From: a virus | Virus record (IMG/VR): IMGVR_UViG_3300045988_058524 | Location: 85,118-149,117 of that record | Length of the DNA: 64,000 bases | Strand: one strand, 5' to 3' | Part shown: piece after piece, positions 14,503 to 64,000 of the stretch | Layout of the letters: each line of letters begins with the position of its first letter | Position numbering within the stretch: position 1 is the first letter of the stretch | Position numbers and translations under genes: made by a program | Notes under the pieces: model-generated | Told to the model about the DNA's origin: nothing | Seen by the model: only the letters and a program-made list of their open reading frames with translations | Database searches by the model: none

Positions 14503-14979
14503 TTAAAGGGTGTTAAATTGACCCTAGTCACACACCTTATGCTAAATAATAAAATTTCCGACTTTTGTCTTTTTATTAGTTAAAGCATTCTTTATATCCT
14601 ATATCGGAAAACCTAAACTCTATGAACATTCCTATATGGAATCGTAATCCTTATAGAATATGCCCCTTGAGGTCCAGACTCTGATGTATTTTCTCTACTT
14701 GGCAATATTTTGAGACTATTCTACTAGTCTCTCTACACTATCATGAAAGTGTAAGATAATATAGTTGTTATCTTCAAACCATTCCTTAGCTACCTAGTAT
14801 TTTCTAAACATCTTATGGAGTAGCTTTTCTACCTGTTTATCTCCATCCCTTACATCTAACAATTGATATCCAAAGGCGCAGGTATTATAGCACTTCATTC
14901 TCCTCTAGACATCTTTAGCGAAGCCTATCTTCAAAAAGTTGTTGTTTCTTAATAGATATATCATAAAAATTTTTAACAT
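14503..14979 (-). CDS. GIY-YIG homing endonuclease readable only if TAG is decoded as sense (9 in-frame TAG, terminates TAA)
   Basis: Manual translation. MLKIFMIYLLRNNNFLKIGFAKDV*RRMK matches the GIY-YIG core (compare I-TevI GIYQIKNTLNNKVYVGSAKDFEKRWKRH). C-terminus KDYDSI*ECS*SLGFPI*DIKNALTNKK resembles the HTH of homing endonucleases. ATG overlaps the upstream TAA as TAATG. No TAA/TGA in frame. Confidence 0.55.
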
Positions 14980-17067: not shown

Positions 17068-17312
17068 AACTCGATTACTTCAATAACATTTAATCGCTTC
17101 TTAATTAAAAGTTCAAGGTCTTCTCTATCCACGTAGACAAAGTGACTCTTTTTCAAATCAGATAATGTAGAGTCAAATTCTAGAGAAAATGCTTCCTCAG
17201 TTCTCCAATTCTTCTTAGCTGTCCTCAAATAGAGGGCATACTCGTCATCAAAGTCATTAACTACACAGTTCTTAATCGTAGGAATTGGACCTTTAACTAT
17301 TAACTTTTTCAT
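17064..17312 (-). CDS. hypothetical protein
   Basis: ORF track. Confidence 0.3.
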   Translation of the reverse strand: MKKLIVKGPIPTIKNCVVNDFDDEYALYLRTAKKNWRTEEAFSLEFDSTLSDLKKSHFVYVDREDLELLIKKRLNVIEVIEL

Positions 17313-17593
17313 TTCTTAAGCAATTCATAAAAATATTCTATAGGTATTACAGCTACTTGACCCACGCTAGGTGCTCCGTTCTTTCCTGCCTTCTTCCAAC
17401 ATATACAGAACGGTTTAGATTTATCACTACAAGCGTCCCTAATGTCAAAATAGTTTGGCATATTTTGGGTGAATTTAGCTTGGATATTAACTGGGAGTTC
17501 GTTATTCATATCTACAATGTCTATCTTATCAGCATCAGCCAATTTATTCTGACTTCTACTGGATACACACCCTTCATATCCTATGTCTCTCAA
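17309..17593 (-). CDS. hypothetical protein
   Basis: ORF track. Confidence 0.3.
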   Translation of the reverse strand: MRDIGYEGCVSSRSQNKLADADKIDIVDMNNELPVNIQAKFTQNMPNYFDIRDACSDKSKPFCICWKKAGKNGAPSVGQVAVIPIEYFYELLKK

Positions 17594-17837
17594 TTTGTGA
17601 ATTATTTCTAACTCATACTGAGAACCTTTCTGCTTACTTTTCTTAGCTTGCTTGCTTCTTCTTACTGCTGGGTCAGCCCATTCAAAAGTAATTCCATCTT
17701 TTGACTTCGCTCCAGAGCCAGGTTTATTAGCTCTGGCTTTAATAGAATTTATCTCTAGACCTGTTACTTCTGATGCTTCCTCTATGGTTTCAAAAGTTTT
17801 CTTTTCGCCATTTTTAAATGTGGCTGTAACACTTGTA

Positions 17838-18851
17838 TTAGTCTACTTTTTCATTCTTCTTAAATTTCTTTATGTAGTTAGTAATAAATTCTTGTGTACC
17901 CTTTCTTCCGTACATATGATAGTAATCACTTATATCCTTAGCTCCTGTACTTCTGGGAATCATTGATACAATTAGTTCTGGATGTTGCTTTCTAATCTTA
18001 TTAGTAAAACGTACTCCAGTTAAATCATTATCATATAGCAACACAACATATTTGAATCTCTGCTTTAATTCTTCTAATACTTTATCAGAAACAAACTGAG
18101 TTTCAGAGTTGGGAGCTATAGCTGGTATTCCTAAAGAATATAAACACATAACATCTTTCATAGACTTAGTTATCACAACTAGTTTACCACTCTTAACTAA
18201 TTGTTTATAGCCTTGAATGGTTTTAGTAGGAACATTGCCTATGAATCTAAACTCCTTTCGTTTTGGCATATAAATACGCCATTGCTCAATGTTTTCTTTC
18301 TTTCCAAAATAGTAACCATAGATAGGACTATGTTGGGCAGATTGTGCATATATATTTCCGTTGAGAAATACAGTATTACAACTGTAGACCTTGAATTTAT
18401 ACAGAATATCTTTAGTAATACCAAAACTTCCCCACCACTTCAACTCAGATTCTGAGAAATCCTTGGCTTCTATTTGAATAAAGGTTTGTTTTTCCTCTTC
18501 AAACTTCGGCTGGATTTTCACTGCAACTTTCTTTACAGAAGAGTCCTTAGTATATCCAAAGTCTTTAGCTATAATCTTTAAAGCAGTGTGGTAGTTACAA
18601 TTATACTTTTCCATAACTACTCCTTCAAATGTCAGACACTTTCCAGAAGCAAAGTCTTTAAAATACAAGTTTCCAGATTTTCCTCTAAAGAAACTGCAGG
18701 TGACGTGACTGTCACTACGCAAAGGAGACTTAAACAATCCTTTCTTAACTGGGATGCCCAGATAATAAGTCATGTAAGTCTCCTCATTGTTCTTAGATAG
18801 AAGAAATTCCTTAGTAATTTTTGGTTCAAAAGTATAATTAAACATAGTCAC
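17838..18851 (-). CDS. DNA primase (TOPRIM domain)
   Basis: C-terminal TOPRIM-like segment with LLYDNDLTG acidic motif. Lies next to the DnaB-like helicase gene. Confidence 0.5.
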   Translation of the reverse strand: MTMFNYTFEPKITKEFLLSKNNEETYMTYYLGIPVKKGLFKSPLRSDSHVTCSFFRGKSGNLYFKDFASGKCLTFEGVVMEKYNCNYHTALKIIAKDFGYTKDSSVKKVAVKIQPKFEEEKQTFIQIEAKDFSESELKWWGSFGITKDILYKFKVYSCNTVFLNGNIYAQSAQHSPIYGYYFGKKENIEQWRIYMPKRKEFRFIGNVPTKTIQGYKQLVKSGKLVVITKSMKDVMCLYSLGIPAIAPNSETQFVSDKVLEELKQRFKYVVLLYDNDLTGVRFTNKIRKQHPELIVSMIPRSTGAKDISDYYHMYGRKGTQEFITNYIKKFKKNEKVD

Positions 18852-27554: not shown

Positions 27555-27568
27555 CTCTTTTTAAATTA

Positions 27569-28381
27569 CTATCCGCATACATCTATCACTGTTAAATTAT
27601 TATTACTAGGCTTATATCCGTAATCACAATATGAATTAGTTATTATAACACGATCAAAATTGTTACACAGCTTTACCAAGCCTTTGATATTTACAGCATG
27701 ACAAACTATAATCTCGAATTTAGAGTCTGGATATCTCTCTTTAAGAACTTTGAGCTCCCCAAGGAATGTTCCTCCAGCGTCACACAAATCATCAATAAAA
27801 GTAAAGGTCGGACAATAACAATTAACCTCTCTTCCAATGGAAAACTCCTTAATCTTACCAGTTTCCAAATCTCTCACCTTATTGAACACAATATGTCCCC
27901 AATTATTAGAGAGAATTTTGTACCTCTGGTAAGCTCCAGCGTCTGGGAACACAATATTAGATTGAACATCCAGATGCGATTCAAAGTTAAACTTTTGAGG
28001 ATAACATCTAGTTCCTAACAATCCCTTAGTTCTTTCCGAATGGGGTTCCAAAATCATAACATAACGATAGTTCATAGTATTCAAGATACTACAAACCACC
28101 TTTAGAGAAAATGGGCGGTTAAAGTCCATTACTCTATCCATACGCATGGACATTAGATAGGTAATAAACAAATCCCACTCAATCTCTTGTCTATCAAGAA
28201 TGTCTCCGACTTGAGTTAGAATAAATAATTCTTCAGCAGAAGTAATTCTACATATAACCTTTACTGAATCTTTCCTATCAAATTCGTCAGGAAAACTTAT
28301 CTGAGGTTCTCCGTCAGGAAATCTAGTGAGATTATACTTAATCTCACTCTTGTCCAAGTTAATTAAGTTTAATAATTTCAT
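27569..28381 (-). CDS. ribose-phosphate pyrophosphokinase-like (PRPP synthetase family)
   Basis: PRPP-binding motif FIDDLCDAGGT. N-terminal FPDGEPQISF resembles Prs FxDGE. Ends with TAG immediately followed by in-frame TAA. Confidence 0.5.
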   Translation of the reverse strand: MKLLNLINLDKSEIKYNLTRFPDGEPQISFPDEFDRKDSVKVICRITSAEELFILTQVGDILDRQEIEWDLFITYLMSMRMDRVMDFNRPFSLKVVCSILNTMNYRYVMILEPHSERTKGLLGTRCYPQKFNFESHLDVQSNIVFPDAGAYQRYKILSNNWGHIVFNKVRDLETGKIKEFSIGREVNCYCPTFTFIDDLCDAGGTFLGELKVLKERYPDSKFEIIVCHAVNIKGLVKLCNNFDRVIITNSYCDYGYKPSNNNLTVIDVCG

Positions 28382-34708: not shown

Positions 34709-35090
34709 CGCTCCAAGATTCTATAACACCAATCAACTCTAGCATACCATATCTACACATAGCCTTAAATGGCCCAGTAGATATAGAAACAAATGTTGAT
34801 TTACTGTTTCTATAATTTCTTATTACTTGCGTAAGTAAGTCTCTAGCTAGTGCTCTTAGGTCAGAAATAGATGGAACTCTGTACTCTCCAGGACTTATAT
34901 ACATCCTCCAAGGAGACTTTCCTACACATTTCCCATCATCGTCATATGTTCTATGACTCTTGTCCCAACTCATATATTCTAGAACCTTATCAAAGTCAAA
35001 GTTCTTCATGATGTAGTCACACTGAACATCAAGAGGTGGGGCATCACTAAAATTTCTTGTCTTCTTTACTTTCATTTTTATAACATTCAA
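34701..35090 (-). CDS. hypothetical protein
   Basis: ORF track. Confidence 0.3.
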   Translation of the reverse strand: MNVIKMKVKKTRNFSDAPPLDVQCDYIMKNFDFDKVLEYMSWDKSHRTYDDDGKCVGKSPWRMYISPGEYRVPSISDLRALARDLLTQVIRNYRNSKSTFVSISTGPFKAMCRYGMLELIGVIESWSDD

Positions 35091-42121: not shown

Positions 42122-42193
42122 TAACGCCAACGGGATTCGAACCCGTATGGCAGGCGTGAAAAGCCTAAATCCTAACCATTAGATGATGGCGCT
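42122..42193 (-). tRNA. tRNA-Glu(TTC)
   Basis: Acceptor AGCGCCA/TGGCGTT; anticodon loop TTTTCAC; T-arm ACGGGTTCGAATCCCGT. Confidence 0.8.
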
Positions 42194-42196
42194 ATC

Positions 42197-42871
42197 CTAC
42201 TGCACAATCAAGCTATAAGCTTCTTGCAACAGTTTAATAGTTGGAACCATACGGTTATCAACAACTATTATTTTATAAATGTTCAGAATTTCTTTGTAGG
42301 TTAAAGATGTACAAGTTAGAAATATCTGCACATCTTCGTTTACAGAACCATTTGACGATCCTAAATCTACTTTAATCATACTGGGTAATGTCCCAATCTG
42401 AGAAATATCCCAAGTAGATTTAGTTCTCCTGAAAACTTCCCGCTGTTTGGAAGTAAGTTGCTTTTCTTTCAATCTAGACTCAATAATAGTACCATCAAAC
42501 GTTAACGAACCTCCATCGGTATTACTATTATTTAATGCTAGCTGAATCTTCTGAACTGCAGAGTCTTTAGGTTTTGGCTTAAGTTGCACTCCTTCCTTCA
42601 AGCCCTTAATAATCTGCAATGAAGGAATAAAGTCTTTTATTTGAGTTGCATTCCATACAAGAAATTTTCCAGGACTATCCTTAACAGTAACTATATACTT
42701 AGTCCCTCCGTTCAATGGGATAATTACTTGTAAGTCTGCATCACTCATTTTACTTAAATGGTCTGATACTCTAACTTTGACGTTTCCAATGACAAAGTAG
42801 CGAGAAACAGTGGTTTCAGCTTCGATAATCTCGGAAGCTGTTGCTAATAAATACTTTTCTAATCTAGTCAT
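42197..42871 (-). CDS. hypothetical protein
   Basis: ORF track. Confidence 0.35.
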   Translation of the reverse strand: MTRLEKYLLATASEIIEAETTVSRYFVIGNVKVRVSDHLSKMSDADLQVIIPLNGGTKYIVTVKDSPGKFLVWNATQIKDFIPSLQIIKGLKEGVQLKPKPKDSAVQKIQLALNNSNTDGGSLTFDGTIIESRLKEKQLTSKQREVFRRTKSTWDISQIGTLPSMIKVDLGSSNGSVNEDVQIFLTCTSLTYKEILNIYKIIVVDNRMVPTIKLLQEAYSLIVQ

Positions 42872-43862: not shown

Positions 43863-43868
43863 ATTATG

Positions 43869-44429
43869 TGGACCTAACGGGAGTCGAACCCGTGTCCAAA
43901 CAACCCTCGTTACAAGGATAACGTGCGTCTCATTTTTATTACATCAGCTAGGGAGTTCTAGCATTTAGGTAGTTTTATAAGTCTTACAAGAGTCCATACT
44001 AAGTATTTCTCTAGATGCTTATCTACAAGCTACCAAACTATAGGGCTGACCGAAGTCAACGTTCCACCACTCCATTTACGTTGGAGAACGGGATGATACT
44101 TTAGAGATTCGTCACATCTCATGGAACACATCTTCCATCTGTTTTATGACGTAGGAGATTCAGTCTTACTAACTCTTAGAGTGTTCTGATTAAGAGTATA
44201 TTACTAGGATTAGAGCCTAGCTCTCCATTATATCAATATACTCAACCTCTTCTGTTTCTAGGTCTCTCCCGTAACCCGACTTAGTTAATAGTGTCTACCA
44301 ACAAGCCAGCAGCTTAGGCTGCCATTCTTACAGGTGCAATTTCTGCAGTTATTTGTTTTCTTCGTTTAAAGAGATTGCGCTCTACACGTCCTTATAATTC
44401 GTAATCGCCTGTCAAATCCAAGTAGGCCC
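43869..44429 (-). ncRNA. tmRNA-like RNA (tRNA-like acceptor/T-arm ends enclosing ~490 nt)
   Basis: 5' end GGGCCUACUUGGAUUUGACAGGCGAUUACGAA parallels the tmRNA 5' consensus (E. coli GGGGCUGAUUCUGGAUUCGACGGGAUUUGCGAA). 3' end ACGGGTTCGACTCCCGT-TAGGTCC-A forms a T-arm plus acceptor strand pairing with the 5' GGGCCTA. All frames are closed by TAA/TGA. Candidate tag frame ...AEIAPVRMAA-TAA. Confidence 0.45.
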
Positions 44430-45757: not shown

Positions 45758-45824
45758 TAGCGGGATTCGAACCGACGACCTTCAGGTTATGAGCCTGACT
45801 AGCTACCTCTGCTATCATCCCGCG
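45758..45824 (-). pseudogene. tRNA-fMet(CAT)-like gene with ~7-nt deletion in the T-stem/acceptor 3' region
   Basis: Aligns with E. coli initiator tRNA (CGCGGG.TG...GGCTCATAACC.GAAGGTCGTCGGTTC.AATCC) then ends CCCGCTA. The 3' T-stem strand and part of the acceptor are missing. C1 is unpaired as in initiators. Confidence 0.4.
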
Positions 45825-46027
45825 ATATTACAAATGCTTTTTAATTAGTTTACAATGATTATACTCTCCTCCCCATCTAATAGGAAACTCTTTTTCCTTA
45901 GCCTCTTTATACTTCTCTGCCTGTTTCTTGTCTAAGAAGATTTGGCAATCAGTTTCATAATTTTGAGGAGCATTAGCTGGGTGATAATTTACTACATATA
46001 CTTTCATAATTTTTTAAATAAAGTTTG

Positions 46028-46100
46028 TGGACACGCAGGGACTCGAACCCTATCTTCCGGTGTGCAAAACCAGCGCTCTAGCCATTTGAGCTAACGGCCC
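46028..46100 (-). tRNA. tRNA-Ala(TGC)-like with mispaired acceptor stem (possibly degenerate)
   Basis: D-arm GCTCAAATGGCTAGAGC; anticodon loop TTTGCAC. Acceptor 5' GGGCCGT versus 3' CGTGTCC pairs only at 1-4, including G3-U70; positions 5-7 are mismatched. Confidence 0.4.
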
Positions 46101-46231
46101 ATTTTTGGGATTTTCTTTTTAATTGGTGACATACCCATAAATTTCCACTGTTAAGATTCCACAACTTAACAACACCAGATAAGTTTTTTTTTGTTTGAAT
46201 CATGTTCTAGTAGCATAAGTCCGCAACCATG

Positions 46232-46492
46232 CTACTCTCTCAGTTCATCGACTATCGTGTCAGAAAAGGTCTCTATGATTCCGCAGGGACTGGCTTTAAC
46301 CCCGAATGGATTTTTACCTTGCCAGGATATTATTACGTTTCTAGCACTCTGAATTGATTTAGCCTGTTTAATCTTATAATCACGAACTACTTCTTTCATA
46401 TAAGAGTTAAATTCCTTCATGTCTTTCCATGAAATCTCATTAGCTAGTTTTGGAGTTTGAAACATTTTGTACTTTTCTAATAGGTCTTTCAT
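46232..46492 (-). CDS. hypothetical protein
   Basis: ORF track. Confidence 0.3.
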   Translation of the reverse strand: MKDLLEKYKMFQTPKLANEISWKDMKEFNSYMKEVVRDYKIKQAKSIQSARNVIISWQGKNPFGVKASPCGIIETFSDTIVDELRE

Positions 46493-46619
46493 TTCTCTCT
46501 TTAGTTTTCAAAGCATTTTCACACGCTTGTTTCTTCATTACATATGGACAATCACAATTTCCACTGTAGTACCAACAACAATAATCACACTGATGCATAA
46601 TCTAATATAAGGTCAATAG

Positions 46620-46691
46620 CTGGGGCACATGGACTCGAACCATGATTCTTTGATTAACAGTCAAAAGTTCTGACCTTTGAACTATACCCCA
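46620..46691 (-). tRNA. tRNA-Asn(GTT)
   Basis: Acceptor TGGGGTA/TGCCCCA; anticodon loop CTGTTAA; T-arm CATGGTTCGAGTCCATG. Confidence 0.75.
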
Positions 46692-47008
46692 ATAGTTAAT
46701 TTTCTCCACGGGTGTAGATAAGTACCCTTTGGTACTTACCTTTTAGTAGTATCTTTACTCTAGACCTCTATAAGGAGGCGGAATAGTTCCAGAAACTAAC
46801 CATGTATAGCTCTTAGAACTCTGTTCAAAATACCACTTAGCAGCTTTCTTCACAACATTAATTACTTTCTTCATAACATCAAAGTTTAAAATTGTTAATA
46901 ATTAATCTAATTCAGAGCCACAAAAGGAGTTTAGTTGCGGAGGTAGGATTATTTCCAAATAAATTTATATGCAGTTTTCAATTTCCCTTTTACACATAAA
47001 CTAATCTT

Positions 47009-47584
47009 CTAGCGAACACCTCCATTATAAGTTTTAGCATAACCATTGTCTACTAACCAGTGTGCAGCATCGGCTATACTGTTCCAAGTCCTGATAAAAT
47101 TATTATTTAAATCATACTGAGATATTGATACAGGTTGCTTGCAACTTCCCAAATAAAATTTGTTCTTTGGTATATTGTTTATATTTATTACTTTAGAAAC
47201 TGTATCAACAGAACATTGCATTTTGGCGGAAACTTCAATCATTGTCATTCCGCTAGTATATAAAGATATTATTTCTTTATAATCGAATAAGATAGCTCCA
47301 TCGCCTCCCATAGTAGCATTATAGCCATTTGAGTATGTGTCTAGCTTATCTATAAATTGAATTTCATAAGAAGCTAATTCCTCATCATCACATTCATACA
47401 GCTACTCAACTATAAAGTTCTCAACACCATACTTATTCATGGCATCATATAAAGGTCTTTTGTTGCATCTTTCTTTCTAAAAGTCATAACAATGTTCCTT
47501 CCAGCGCTCTTCTATAGAAGTAGTAGTTTTTCCTACGTATCGCTTGCTATTAATTAAATTTGTAATGCAATAAATATATGCCAT
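47009..47584 (-). CDS. GIY-YIG homing endonuclease interrupted by two in-frame TAG codons (and TAG-terminated)
   Basis: Single frame reads MAYIYCITNLINSKRYVGKTTTSIEERWKEHCYDF-TAG-KERCNKRPLYDAMNKYGVENFIVE-TAG-LYECDDEELASYEIQ...MGGDGAILFDYKEI...GGVR-TAG. In-frame TAGs are at 47477-79 and 47402-04. Track pieces 47477..47740 and 47009..47311 lie in the same frame. Confidence 0.5.
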
Positions 47585-47604
47585 ATTTTTAAATTTAAAA
47601 TTAG

Positions 47605-47689
47605 AATCCGTGGAGGGATTCGAACCCTCATTAAAGATTTCTCTTTTCAGTTTTGCAGACTGATGGCTAAACCATTCACCCACACGGAT
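47605..47689 (-). tRNA. type II (Ser-like architecture) tRNA with GCA (Cys) anticodon and U73
   Basis: Acceptor ATCCGTG/CACGGAT. D-arm TGGGTGAATGGTTTAGCC resembles the tRNA-Ser(GCT) at 53358. Anticodon stem TCAGT/ACTGA with loop CTGCAAA. 17-nt variable hairpin AAAGA-GAAA-TCTTT. T-arm GAGGGTTCGAATCCCTC. Confidence 0.55.
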
Positions 47690-47690
47690 A

Positions 47691-47993
47691 TTAAGATTTA
47701 AAGTACTTCTCTCTAAATGGGATATTAAATAATGAATCATTAATATCCTTATCAGTTATTTCCCTATCTAGAGCCTTCTCCGCACATTCGCTACAGATAA
47801 ACACATGGTGGTCTGGATAATAATCTTTACCTCCCCCTTTGTAATAAGAGGAGAATTTCTTTGCAGCTTCTTTTTCAAAATTGGTTAGCTTAAAGTAATT
47901 TATTATCTTGTTCCAAACCTCATCAATAAACATTGGAGAGTTATGGTCTCCATAATAAAATTCTTTATTACATACTGTACACTTTATTTTCAT
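47691..47993 (-). CDS. hypothetical Zn-ribbon protein
   Basis: CTVCNKEF...CSECAEKA. Confidence 0.3.
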   Translation of the reverse strand: MKIKCTVCNKEFYYGDHNSPMFIDEVWNKIINYFKLTNFEKEAAKKFSSYYKGGGKDYYPDHHVFICSECAEKALDREITDKDINDSLFNIPFREKYFKS

Positions 47994-48008
47994 AAAACTT
48001 AAATTTTG

Positions 48009-48080
48009 AGTAGGTAATGAGAATCGAACTCACATCCTCGGCATGGCAAGCCGATGCACTAACCGTTGTGCTATACCTAC
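48009..48080 (-). tRNA. tRNA-Gly(GCC)
   Basis: Acceptor GTAGGTA/TACCTAC; anticodon loop TTGCCAT; T-arm GTGAGTTCGATTCTCAT. Confidence 0.8.
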
Positions 48081-48085
48081 AAATG

Positions 48086-48160
48086 TGCAGATAGAGAGAC
48101 TCGAACTCTCCCCTTCAGATTGGAAGTCTGACGTGCTCAAACCATTAACACCACATCTGC
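48086..48160 (-). tRNA. tRNA-Gly(TCC)
   Basis: Acceptor GCAGATG/TATCTGC; anticodon loop CTTCCAA; T-arm GAGAGTTCGAGTCTCTC. Confidence 0.7.
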
Positions 48161-48197
48161 ATAAGGAGAGTTATACGATACTCTCCTAAACGCTATC

Positions 48198-62954: not shown

Positions 62955-64000
62955 TTTTATTAATTATTACTAGAACTATTAGTTTCAGCTTGAATAGCTT
63001 ACTTATCTCCTAAACCACGTAAAGGTTGTTCTTATCTTAGGAGTAGAGGCACCGCTGTGCCTCACAATTGTCTCAGAACTTTCCTGTGCCTATAGCCAAA
63101 TGGCTATTTTCGATTATATAGTGTATAATCTCACAATACTTTGCCTTATCTCTCGATAAGACATCTCTCCAGTATCAAGGAGCATACTGTTTGGTATAAG
63201 AGATGCTCTGCATTAGTCTCTGGGCGTACCCATTATAGTCCTTAACAGCAAATAGAGCCTACAAGTAGCTGTAGTCCTCAAATACTAAGTTCCCCACTCC
63301 GGGTTTGAACCAGAATCTCCTTCTTTAGAGGAAGGCGCAATGCATTATACTAATGGGGAAAACTCTATCTTGGCAACTAGTATAAGATAGAGAGTTATTC
63401 AACTACTTAATTCTCAGTTTCCTATACTGAAAATCAAATAGCTACGTTACTAACGTTCACTAAGAATATAGGTAGCTAATCCATATTCTTGCGACTGAGT
63501 TCGAGGTAGGAAATATACCCTTATGAGGTATCCTCTTATCAGCTAGCCTTATTAATCTAGCGGCTTATACCAGGCAACTTCTAATACAATTGTATAACAT
63601 ATAAAAATATGACATACATGGTCTACTGGTATGTCAGCAGTACTTTCATATATTGCTATAAGTGACCAATCTTATAGCTCAATCCTCCTTACTCATGAGA
63701 TAAGTTTGCGAACTCTCATTTTCATTAATAGCAGTTATTTTCGGATATTGGGCTATCTGCGTAACCCCGCTTTTTGTTGCCTTTTTATAGGCTAATGTTA
63801 GAGTAAATAATCATTGTAGTATGAGTTATAAAACTCGTCCTACTGACGATTTTTTGAAAACTGGAAAAAGTAGGAAAATCTGCCTTTGAGTTTGTGGAAC
63901 ATTCTTCTCCTTACTCTCCATATTTTCACGTGAAACATACACGATTTTACTAGAAATGATAGTCTTTCCTATCAGCCAGACATAAAAACTAAAACTACTA

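Follow-up and report, generated by a model that had tools for sequence, protein, structure and literature searches.

An amber-containing GIY-YIG homing endonuclease gene, predicted to be intact, in the tRNA array of a probable crAss-like phage

The endonuclease gene and its in-frame amber codons

The 64,000-nucleotide stretch of viral DNA studied here, called the window (IMG/VR record IMGVR_UViG_3300045988_058524, positions 85,118 to 149,117), carries in its tRNA array a predicted GIY-YIG homing endonuclease gene, HEG1, whose frame contains three TAG codons and whose ATG lies 19 nt downstream of the 3' end of a tRNA-Cys gene (Table 1). A first-pass annotation had joined two open reading frames (ORFs), 47477..47740 and 47009..47311, into one endonuclease gene. 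Both do lie in a single minus-strand frame, in which the ATG at 47584 (MAYIYCITNL) opens a GIY-YIG domain (Pfam E-value 3.6e-10) followed by a tail with weak HTH_28 and NUMOD1 matches, and the upstream part of ORF 47477..47740 is, as annotated, the translated tRNA (ARAGORN 47604–47689; Rfam 56.3 bits). The annotation had further counted exactly two in-frame TAGs and had the gene end in a TAG, with a TAA 20 codons on. The TAGs at codons 36 and 61 and the position of the TAA are as it described, but the supposed terminal TAG, at codon 192, is a third internal one, and the TAA is the terminator; the 19 codons between them are conserved, and homologues have CAA in place of the TAG.

Re-inspected directly in the sequence, the frame from the ATG to the terminal TAA contains no other TAA, no TGA and no frameshift. 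At the local composition, the chance of a 211-codon frame without TAA or TGA is ~8e-6. The standard code would split the frame into pieces of 35, 24 and 130 codons, and termination at codon 36 would yield a 35-amino acid peptide only.

We take the third TAG to be internal because the 19 codons after it (KISLCVKGKLKTAYKFIWK) are conserved and because TAG-free homologues carry CAA there. These codons are nearly invariant and among the best conserved of the family, and the four closer homologues with a sense codon at column 192, read as DNA, all have CAA (L003, L012, L013 and L014; L numbers denote loci of homologues and relatives). HEG1 therefore has three internal ambers and its real end at 46949. 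The other two TAGs also fall at ordinary columns, mostly of Gln, Lys, Glu or Arg, with sense codons in homologues, as the annotation had anticipated. Column 36 is K, Q or R in homologues, with CAA in the TAG-free L003, and column 61 is E or Q except in copies of the paralogue type that we call B (see below), all of which keep the TAG; column 192 in the wider family is S, Q or R.

Domains of the HEG1 protein

HEG1 matches a PHROG annotated as homing endonuclease (E-value 1.3e-27) and aligns with the catalytic domain of I-TevI (1MK0; E-value 2.7e-6). Its homologues number 1840, many of them exactly 211 amino acids in length. Six residues are invariant across 29 sequences (Y5, Y16, R27, H31, E74 and N89), and these correspond to Y6, Y17, R27, H31, E75 and N90 of I-TevI. 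The two matches in the tail are below the Pfam thresholds (NUMOD1, residues 153–174, E-value 5e-4, 20.6 bits against a cut-off of 22.8; HTH_28, residues 104–135, E-value 0.0056, 17.2 bits against a cut-off of 25). Several homologues have precomputed HTH domains (PF13384, PF13936, PF13518 and PF02796), and the tail region is conserved in the family. Its sequence marks HEG1 as an intact homing endonuclease gene of the GIY-YIG class that stands free of any intron, with an I-TevI/Seg-type catalytic domain and a predicted tail of HTH/NUMOD type.

Phage T4, which uses the standard code, has the Seg endonucleases, with SegB in its tRNA gene cluster. HEG1 resembles SegB and the other T4 Seg enzymes in being free-standing between tRNA genes and in its presence/absence polymorphism among related phages. 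With I-TevI (structure 1MK0/1LN0) and the Seg enzymes it shares the six catalytic residues, at nearly the same numbering, and, by prediction, a modular DNA-binding tail. Sequence identity is ~30%, in the catalytic domain only, and the cleavage and target site of HEG1 are predictions.

The truncated products might themselves be functional, for example an internally started 100-residue DNA-binding fragment (ORF 47009–47311) acting as a repressor or site-protection factor. This ORF begins with ATG and spans the HTH/NUMOD part of the protein. However, M92, the internal Met, varies within the family and is replaced by K in most homologues; the catalytic residues are invariant in the window gene as well as in the family; and the most conserved part, the last 19 codons, lies past the TAG that closes the ORF. 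We consider such a function very unlikely.

Selection on the frame

Codons 37–211 of the window gene, compared with those of L011 (89% identical in protein), give a nonsynonymous rate (dN) of 0.026 and a synonymous rate (dS) of 0.409, for a dN/dS of 0.06. The TAGs are retained in relatives whose copy is 89–98% identical in protein, and codons 61 and 192 stay TAG in every B-type gene, down to that of L011. Among homologue loci from IMG/VR, 73 of 78 are intact when TAG is read as sense, whereas under the standard code just 14 of 62 automatically scored loci are intact; the other 11 loci were inspected by eye and stand outside the standard-code count. Copies in the family that have truly decayed look different: L056 is frameshifted and has all three kinds of stop codon, and L067 has an internal TAA. 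The whole HEG1 frame is under purifying selection.

These data bear on whether HEG1 is instead a pseudogene, inactivated by nonsense mutations and decaying, with a downstream frame still open because the event was recent. The broken frame under the standard code would fit this, as would the decay cycles known for homing endonuclease genes, of which L056 and L067 are examples. Against it stand the dN/dS of 0.06 measured after the first TAG, and dozens of diverged homologues that share the architecture and have TAGs at different positions. To these can be added the occurrence of a suppressor tRNA, a terminase gene (TerL) that contains TAGs as well, and the finding that 13 of 13 in-frame stops in three nuclease genes of the window are TAG (P ~4e-8; see below). 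A pseudogene is hardly credible on this record. The first-pass annotation had likewise argued for programmed UAG decoding over pseudogenization, and its argument is strengthened by the tRNA with anticodon CUA, the kept TAGs, the purifying selection, the interchange of TAG with CAA and CAG, and the TAGs in TerL.

The amino acid at UAG and the tRNAs that read it

Family proteins in the database (P0002, P0004) had been translated with TAG as Q, and the database translation of L002 did not match. Because of that translation, Q residues in the database were unusable at face value, and the column statistics were redone on DNA. The comparison covered 126 TAG instances from 49 distinct homologues. At the columns concerned, 16.6% of residues are Gln, compared with 2.6% in the background, an enrichment of 6.4-fold; R (2.5-fold), E (1.7-fold) and K (1.5-fold) follow, and W, Y and L are under-represented. 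For 35 of the 126 cases, the closest relative in which the codon is a sense codon reads CAA or CAG. TAG-free L003 (protein P0030) has CAA at both columns 36 and 192, and 90%-identical orthologues of HEG2, a second nuclease gene of the window, have exchanged TAG and Gln codons in both directions. On these comparisons, the three in-frame UAGs of HEG1 are sense codons.

The window has a tRNA gene with anticodon CUA (tRNA-CUA), an identical copy of which occurs in the relatives L087 and L088, and this tRNA likely decodes the in-frame UAGs. It lacks a long variable arm, so the Ser, Leu and bacterial Tyr types are excluded. ARAGORN labels it 'Pyl' from the anticodon alone; the window showed no pyl genes. 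The contigs of L087 and L088 add a second tRNA-CUA, on the opposite strand, whose closest match is the phage tRNA-Gln(UUG), to which it is identical in the D arm. Each gene block of the phage thus has an amber suppressor of its own, and the two differ.

UAG could also be read as some amino acid different from Gln, for instance Lys, Glu, Trp, Tyr, Leu or pyrrolysine. The 'Pyl' label, a tRNA-CUA that is not recognizably derived from tRNA-Gln, and the frequency of K, E and R at TAG columns leave some room for this. Gln is nevertheless by far the most enriched residue, with W, Y and L depleted, and the TAG and CAA/CAG swaps between close orthologues, the resemblance of the relatives' second tRNA-CUA to tRNA-Gln, the missing variable arm and the lack of pyl genes in the window all speak for Gln. 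In other crAss-like phages, moreover, the residue identified at UAG by metaproteomics is Gln (PMC9523058). We regard a residue other than Gln as improbable.

Members of the endonuclease family at L051 (5001–5624) and L053 (5001–5591) have TGA in frame at columns conserved as Trp (ER#KEH, AAE#L and KYT#KY, with # for the TGA). These copies appear to be adapted to UGA-to-Trp rather than UAG-to-Gln recoding. With TAG in UAG-recoded phages and TGA in UGA-recoded ones, the endonuclease family therefore adopts the code of the resident phage.

A RAGATH-14 RNA (Rfam RF03145, 183 bits against a gathering threshold of 149) is located at 63389–63582 on the minus strand, 30 nt upstream of tRNA-CUA and on the same strand. 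This adjacency may be meaningful.

Recoding is confined to nuclease genes within the replication/tRNA block

The window probably belongs to a ~186–192 kb crAss-like human-gut phage of the Zeta type with UAG reassigned to glutamine. Contigs of relatives with exact copies of window proteins are 182–193 kb in length, and PolA and TerL match only or mainly crAss-like phages, at 28–47% identity. The genome has 24–26 tRNAs (ARAGORN, Rfam) and two divergent gene blocks. A megablast search with positions 46000–49000 against annotated phages gave a single match, the 7-kb record MT837398, which has no annotation and was used as a relative.

The TerL gene (phrog_6681, E-value 8.9e-36) is seen in relatives 96–98% identical to the window, where its locus lies ~10 kb past the window's right end on the opposite strand. 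It has at least 8 in-frame TAGs, and small genes next to it on the same strand have 3–6 TAGs each. In the TerL fragment, TAG, CAA and CAG number 8, 3 and 5, so that TAG is 50% of Gln codons.

We counted recoding along the minus strand of the window. Of its 91 non-overlapping ORFs only three depend on read-through, all of them nuclease-type genes. The companion gene that the first-pass annotation had reported at 14503 is one of them: HEG2 (14503..14964) has a T5orf172/MUG113 domain and nine in-frame TAGs. The other two are HEG1 and HEG3, the latter assigned as RusA-like from PHROGs, with no Pfam match; without read-through, only a TTG-started fragment of 94 amino acids would be open in HEG3, with the DNA-binding part absent. 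TAG, CAA and CAG number 3, 3 and 1 in HEG1 (TAG 43% of Gln codons), 9, 3 and 1 in HEG2 (69%), and 1, 4 and 3 in HEG3 (13%). Together the three genes have 13 TAGs, no in-frame TAA or TGA, and 15 CAA/CAG codons, as compared with 0 TAGs and ~442 CAA/CAG codons in all other genes (Fisher p = 5e-18). These selfish genes therefore share the coding type of the packaging genes inside a block that otherwise follows the standard code.

Table 1. Positions of HEG1, its neighbors and related features; positions are those of the window unless an L number is given.
Feature	Position	Strand	Remarks
HEG1, GIY-YIG homing endonuclease gene, complete	46949..47584	minus	211 sense codons including 3 TAG, then TAA stop
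HEG1 start codon ATG	47584	minus	N-terminus MAYIYCITNL
HEG1 TAG, codon 36	47477..47479	minus	between catalytic residues R27/H31 and Glu74
HEG1 TAG, codon 61	47402..47404	minus	in-frame
HEG1 TAG, codon 192	47009..47011	minus	internal, not the terminator
HEG1 true terminator TAA	46949-46951	minus	twenty codons past the third TAG
GIY-YIG catalytic domain, residues 1-89	47318..47584	minus	Pfam PF01541 E-value 3.6e-10; invariant columns; 1MK0 alignment
Predicted DNA-binding tail	46952..47275	minus	HTH-like 104-135, NUMOD1-like 153-174, conserved C-terminal motif 193-211
A/B crossover zone	47414..47455	minus	inside shared PLYDAMNKYG.ENF; placed by comparison with L001, L002 and L010, where A and B lie in tandem
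Orphan 16-nt repeat of tRNA-Met-like 3' end (AATCCTACCTCCGCAA)	46935..46950	minus	overlaps TAA stop; downstream repeat of the B cassette
Sequence mark for placing the putative cut in HEG-minus alleles (GGTTCGAATCC)			
tRNA-Cys(GCA), 86 nt, long variable arm	47604..47689	minus	ARAGORN; Rfam tRNA 56.3 bits
Second, normal tRNA-Cys	49471-49545		
HEG2, T5orf172/MUG113 nuclease-family domain and DNA-binding tail	14503..14964	minus	Pfam E-value 4.5e-10; 153 codons, 9 TAG, stop TAA
HEG3, N-terminal DNA-binding segment and RusA-like nuclease domain	17309..17854	minus	PHROG 244 E-value 3.3e-10; TAG at codon 4
TAG ends of six ordinary genes	27566-27571, 35044-35049, 53117-53125, 42179-42199, 46166-46234, 52034-52105	minus	
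Amber suppressor tRNA, anticodon CUA	63290..63359	minus	ARAGORN; Rfam tRNA 43.9 bits
Second tRNA-CUA	L087 6712-6784, L088 6719-6791	minus	~2.4 kb past the window's right end, packaging-gene strand
Ribozyme-endonuclease cassettes	L001 3387-4186 (minus); L031 4829-5650; L080 4856-5640; L039 4840-5670		

HEG1 is a recombinant of two tandem paralogues

Relatives differ in what they carry at the HEG1 locus. In L001, L002 and L010 the order is the 86-nt tRNA-Cys, endonuclease gene A (6 TAGs), an 81-nt tRNA-Met-like gene, endonuclease gene B (3 TAGs) and tRNA-Asn. L008, L009, L011 and L081 have B without A, and L021–L030 have A without B. An A/B hybrid occurs in the window and in L007; it is of type A up to residue 57 and of type B thereafter, and the tRNA-Met-like gene is missing from both sequences. 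These four arrangements (A, B, A+B and the hybrid) amount to a presence/absence polymorphism. The TAG at codon 36 of the hybrid comes from A, and those at codons 61 and 192 from B. Comparison of the arrangements shows that HEG1 arose by recombination between the tandem paralogous cassettes A and B, and that this event removed the tRNA-Met-like gene between them together with its theta ribozyme (described below). The full set of tRNA-Met-like gene, theta ribozyme, B gene and 16-nt repeat is held by L001 and L008, and the repeat is left as an orphan in the window.

For a tRNA-Cys, such a long variable arm is uncommon. Where relatives lack paralogue A, the tRNA-Cys at this position is an ordinary one of 75 nt, and the odd 86-nt tRNA-Cys therefore travels with endonuclease A.

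Ribozyme-endonuclease cassettes after tRNA genes

Directly after each of four tRNA genes (tRNA-Leu(taa), tRNA-Pro, tRNA-Leu(tag) and the tRNA-Met-like one), alleles with and without an endonuclease gene can be compared. The window provides the empty site for the first three and L025 that for the tRNA-Met-like gene. The inserted cassettes have a common layout, consisting of the tRNA 3' end, a theta ribozyme, a TAG-containing GIY-YIG gene, and an exact repeat of 12–16 nt of the tRNA end. The ribozyme is recognized as an element of ~55 nt between the tRNA end and the ATG in relatives, with two covarying, interleaved helices and an invariant core (ACC-T-CC-ACGT-GGT ... GG-GTAACG-CTAA).

Theta ribozymes are minimal ribozymes like that of hepatitis delta virus (HDV), found at the 3' end of tRNAs of gut phages (Kienbeck et al. 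2024, PMC10879173). The element before the B gene, and that of other cassettes in relatives, has the segments P1, J, P2, ACC T CC ACGT GGT, P1', GG, GTAACG, CTAA and P2' in this order, exactly as PMC10879173 divides the ribozyme in its supplement. On this agreement and on its covarying helices, the element is identified as a predicted theta ribozyme. No Rfam model detects the element, either at the gathering threshold or, for four loci, in E-value mode.

Ribozyme and endonuclease are jointly present or jointly absent in all four allele comparisons. The repeat of the last 12–16 nt of the tRNA, starting in or just after the stop codon, occurs in 13 of 24 distinct cassettes and in 0 of 200 shuffles of each. 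In an IMG/VR sample of 80 theta ribozymes drawn blind to endonucleases, 17 precede a member of the GIY-YIG family. The motif is absent at HEG1 of the window, where there is only the 19-nt spacer, and a search of the window for the theta core gave one match only (63014–63026), with 2 mismatches, such as 30% of shuffles give.

The association of ribozyme and endonuclease is real, and it is plausible that the two form a composite mobile element. Such an element would invade phage tRNA genes, supply a substitute copy of the tRNA 3' end, and bring with it a theta ribozyme, which would release the tRNA from the insert by cleavage, along with a suppressor-dependent GIY-YIG endonuclease; the window gene would be a derivative that has lost the ribozyme when two such cassettes recombined. 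We hold this full scheme tentatively, at slightly less than even odds. By analogy, it recalls the R2 retrotransposon, which is mobile in a stable-RNA gene, is co-transcribed with it, and has a 5' HDV-like ribozyme that frees it from the host RNA. R2 differs in being a eukaryotic retroelement of rDNA; here, a DNA homing-endonuclease cassette resides in phage tRNA genes, and there is no reverse transcriptase. We had considered that solitary theta ribozymes might be footprints of lost cassettes, but rejected this as a general rule, the repeat being found in just 9 of 85, mostly with an endonuclease.

If the scheme is true, many theta ribozymes would be the self-healing part of a mobile endonuclease cassette and not primarily devices for tRNA maturation or code switching, and their part would be equivalent to that of self-splicing introns for endonucleases encoded within them. 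Gene callers that use the standard code split or miss such genes, which may explain surveys that place theta ribozymes far from any ORF. PMC10879173 treats theta ribozymes as tRNA-maturation or recoding devices and does not mention endonucleases or mobility, and the literature searched (HDV-like ribozyme with homing endonuclease, tRNA and phage) held no link between theta ribozymes and homing endonucleases.

A family of Cys-rich ORFs (MEVKIKYHRPQSEVKCYCCGNIFKKDGSEIRR...) also occurs 3' of theta ribozymes, in L197 and L142, and L197 adds a 14-nt repeat of the tRNA end. The L197 ORF suggests that other gene families use the ribozyme/tRNA-repeat cassette design.

A degenerate theta-like element is present in the window at 62990–63075 on the minus strand, ~260 nt downstream of tRNA-CUA. 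It has a perfect 7-bp P1 (CTCCTAA/TTAGGAG) around ACCTTTACGTGGT and no P1.1 or P2 partner, and may be a decayed ribozyme or a chance resemblance.

Discussion

We propose that HEG1 is an intact homing endonuclease gene in the tRNA array of a UAG-to-Gln crAss-like phage, that its UAGs are read by the phage tRNA-CUA, and that its synthesis is tied to the code switch; we would put the probability of this at roughly 0.85. The tRNA-CUA, in its two species, would read the UAGs in competition with host release factor 1. Without a suppressor there would be no active enzyme, because translation would stop after 35 residues, before Glu74 and Asn89, and production of the nuclease would have to wait for suppressor tRNA to accumulate. 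Since the selfish nuclease genes, alone in their block, use TAG as Gln, as TerL does, we infer that synthesis of the endonuclease is tied to the same code switch that would gate the packaging and structural genes.

Several points weigh against this proposal. Gln is the best-supported residue, yet it accounts for only 17% of aligned residues at TAG columns. The amino-acid identity of tRNA-CUA is not readable from its sequence, which has U1:A72 and A73 and is without G18G19; among the 23 other tRNAs of the window the closest to it is tRNA-Thr, at 64%, a similarity that does not settle identity. TAG terminates six ordinary genes in the replication/tRNA block, and UAG termination must therefore also work at some stage. 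Three of the six have a TAA or TGA zero or one codon later, as if the second stops back up a leaky terminator, a pattern described for some Zeta crAss-like genomes (PMC12386605). The window tRNA-CUA stands at the upstream end (head) of the replication/tRNA block, on the same strand, and therefore could be transcribed early, which would weaken late gating; the delayed timing is itself something that we only infer. Lastly, a recombinant A/B protein could have changed or lost its specificity, activity and target being predicted.

The concentration of TAGs in nuclease genes might alternatively have no regulatory meaning. UAG would still be Gln, and the codons would have been carried over neutrally, the selfish genes escaping the selection that clears TAG from genes required before a suppressor is at hand, or having moved in recently from recoded regions or phages. 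This differs from the proposal above only in whether the delay is selected, the need for a suppressor being undisputed. Carry-over agrees with a family that follows the resident code (TAG in code-15 phages, TGA at Trp columns of L051 and L053, and at least 14 homologues whose frame is free of stops), with TAG positions that vary widely among paralogues, as drift predicts, and with the single TAG of HEG3. It sits less well with the retention of TAG at codons 61 and 192 across diverged B-type copies and with the TAG share of HEG1 and HEG2, which at 43–69% of their Gln codons reaches the level of TerL, and Borges et al. report statistical over-use of the recoded codon in a family of intron endonucleases (bioRxiv 10.1101/2021.08.26.457843). 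We consider neutral carry-over a possible account, with about one chance in three. The locus would offer a clear natural case of a selfish nuclease that cannot be synthesized without the code switch of its phage, in keeping with the suggestion that recoding sets the time at which potentially harmful proteins are made.

Stop-codon recoding in phages was reportedly described by Ivanova in 2014. Zeta crAss-like phages have genomes of 145–192 kb with TAG-to-Gln recoding mostly in late genes and suppressor tRNAs (Yutin 2021, PMC7886860), and the group has many tRNAs and either TAG-to-Gln or TGA-to-Trp recoding, again mostly in late genes (PMC7886860, PMC12386605). Genetic code 15 has been validated by metaproteomics in crAss-like phages other than that of the window (Peters 2022, PMC9523058). 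The window phage resembles code-15 crAss-like and gut phages in its tRNA-CUA, its TAGs in the terminase but none in replication genes, and the alignment of TAG to Gln, as well as in the 145–192 kb genome size, the many tRNAs and the mobile endonucleases. Nothing essential differs; here, however, the sole recoded genes in the standard-code block are three free-standing nuclease genes, and some TAG-terminated neighbors carry an immediate back-up stop.

The closest precedent for the endonuclease is in the Agate phages, in which a group I intron endonuclease in an early gene is TGA-recoded and in-frame stops are proposed to postpone production until late in infection (Borges et al., bioRxiv 10.1101/2021.08.26.457843). 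In both cases a selfish nuclease among early genes prefers the reassigned stop, and production is proposed to await the code switch. The Agate enzyme is encoded in an intron and uses TGA as Trp, whereas HEG1 is free-standing, lies by tRNA genes, uses TAG as Gln, and is of the GIY-YIG class. Both crAss-like stop-codon recoding and the idea of a homing endonuclease delayed by recoding are thus already published. What is new here is the recombinant of two cassettes and the theta ribozyme–endonuclease–tRNA-repeat cassettes after tRNA genes; these cassettes, if confirmed, would change the interpretation of theta ribozymes. As the family tracks the resident code (TAG, TGA or neither), it may serve as a code marker and as a tractable system for the adaptation of mobile genes to a code.

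Other RNA features of the tRNA array

Inside the tRNA array, the Rfam model RF00023 (66 bits; gathering threshold 47) marks a tmRNA-like gene at 43866–44429 of the window, minus strand, and the gene also occurs at L001 1–564, minus strand. It is 564 nt in length against 374 nt for the model, and ARAGORN makes no call. Two tRNA-like Rfam matches are likewise without an ARAGORN call, one at 46028–46100 (minus strand, 39.5 bits) and a partial one at 45760–45815 (minus strand, 31.8 bits). In the region of L080 that corresponds to the window's tRNA block, a pistol ribozyme is located at 973–1041 on the plus strand (Rfam RF02679, 63 bits against a gathering threshold of 34.5).

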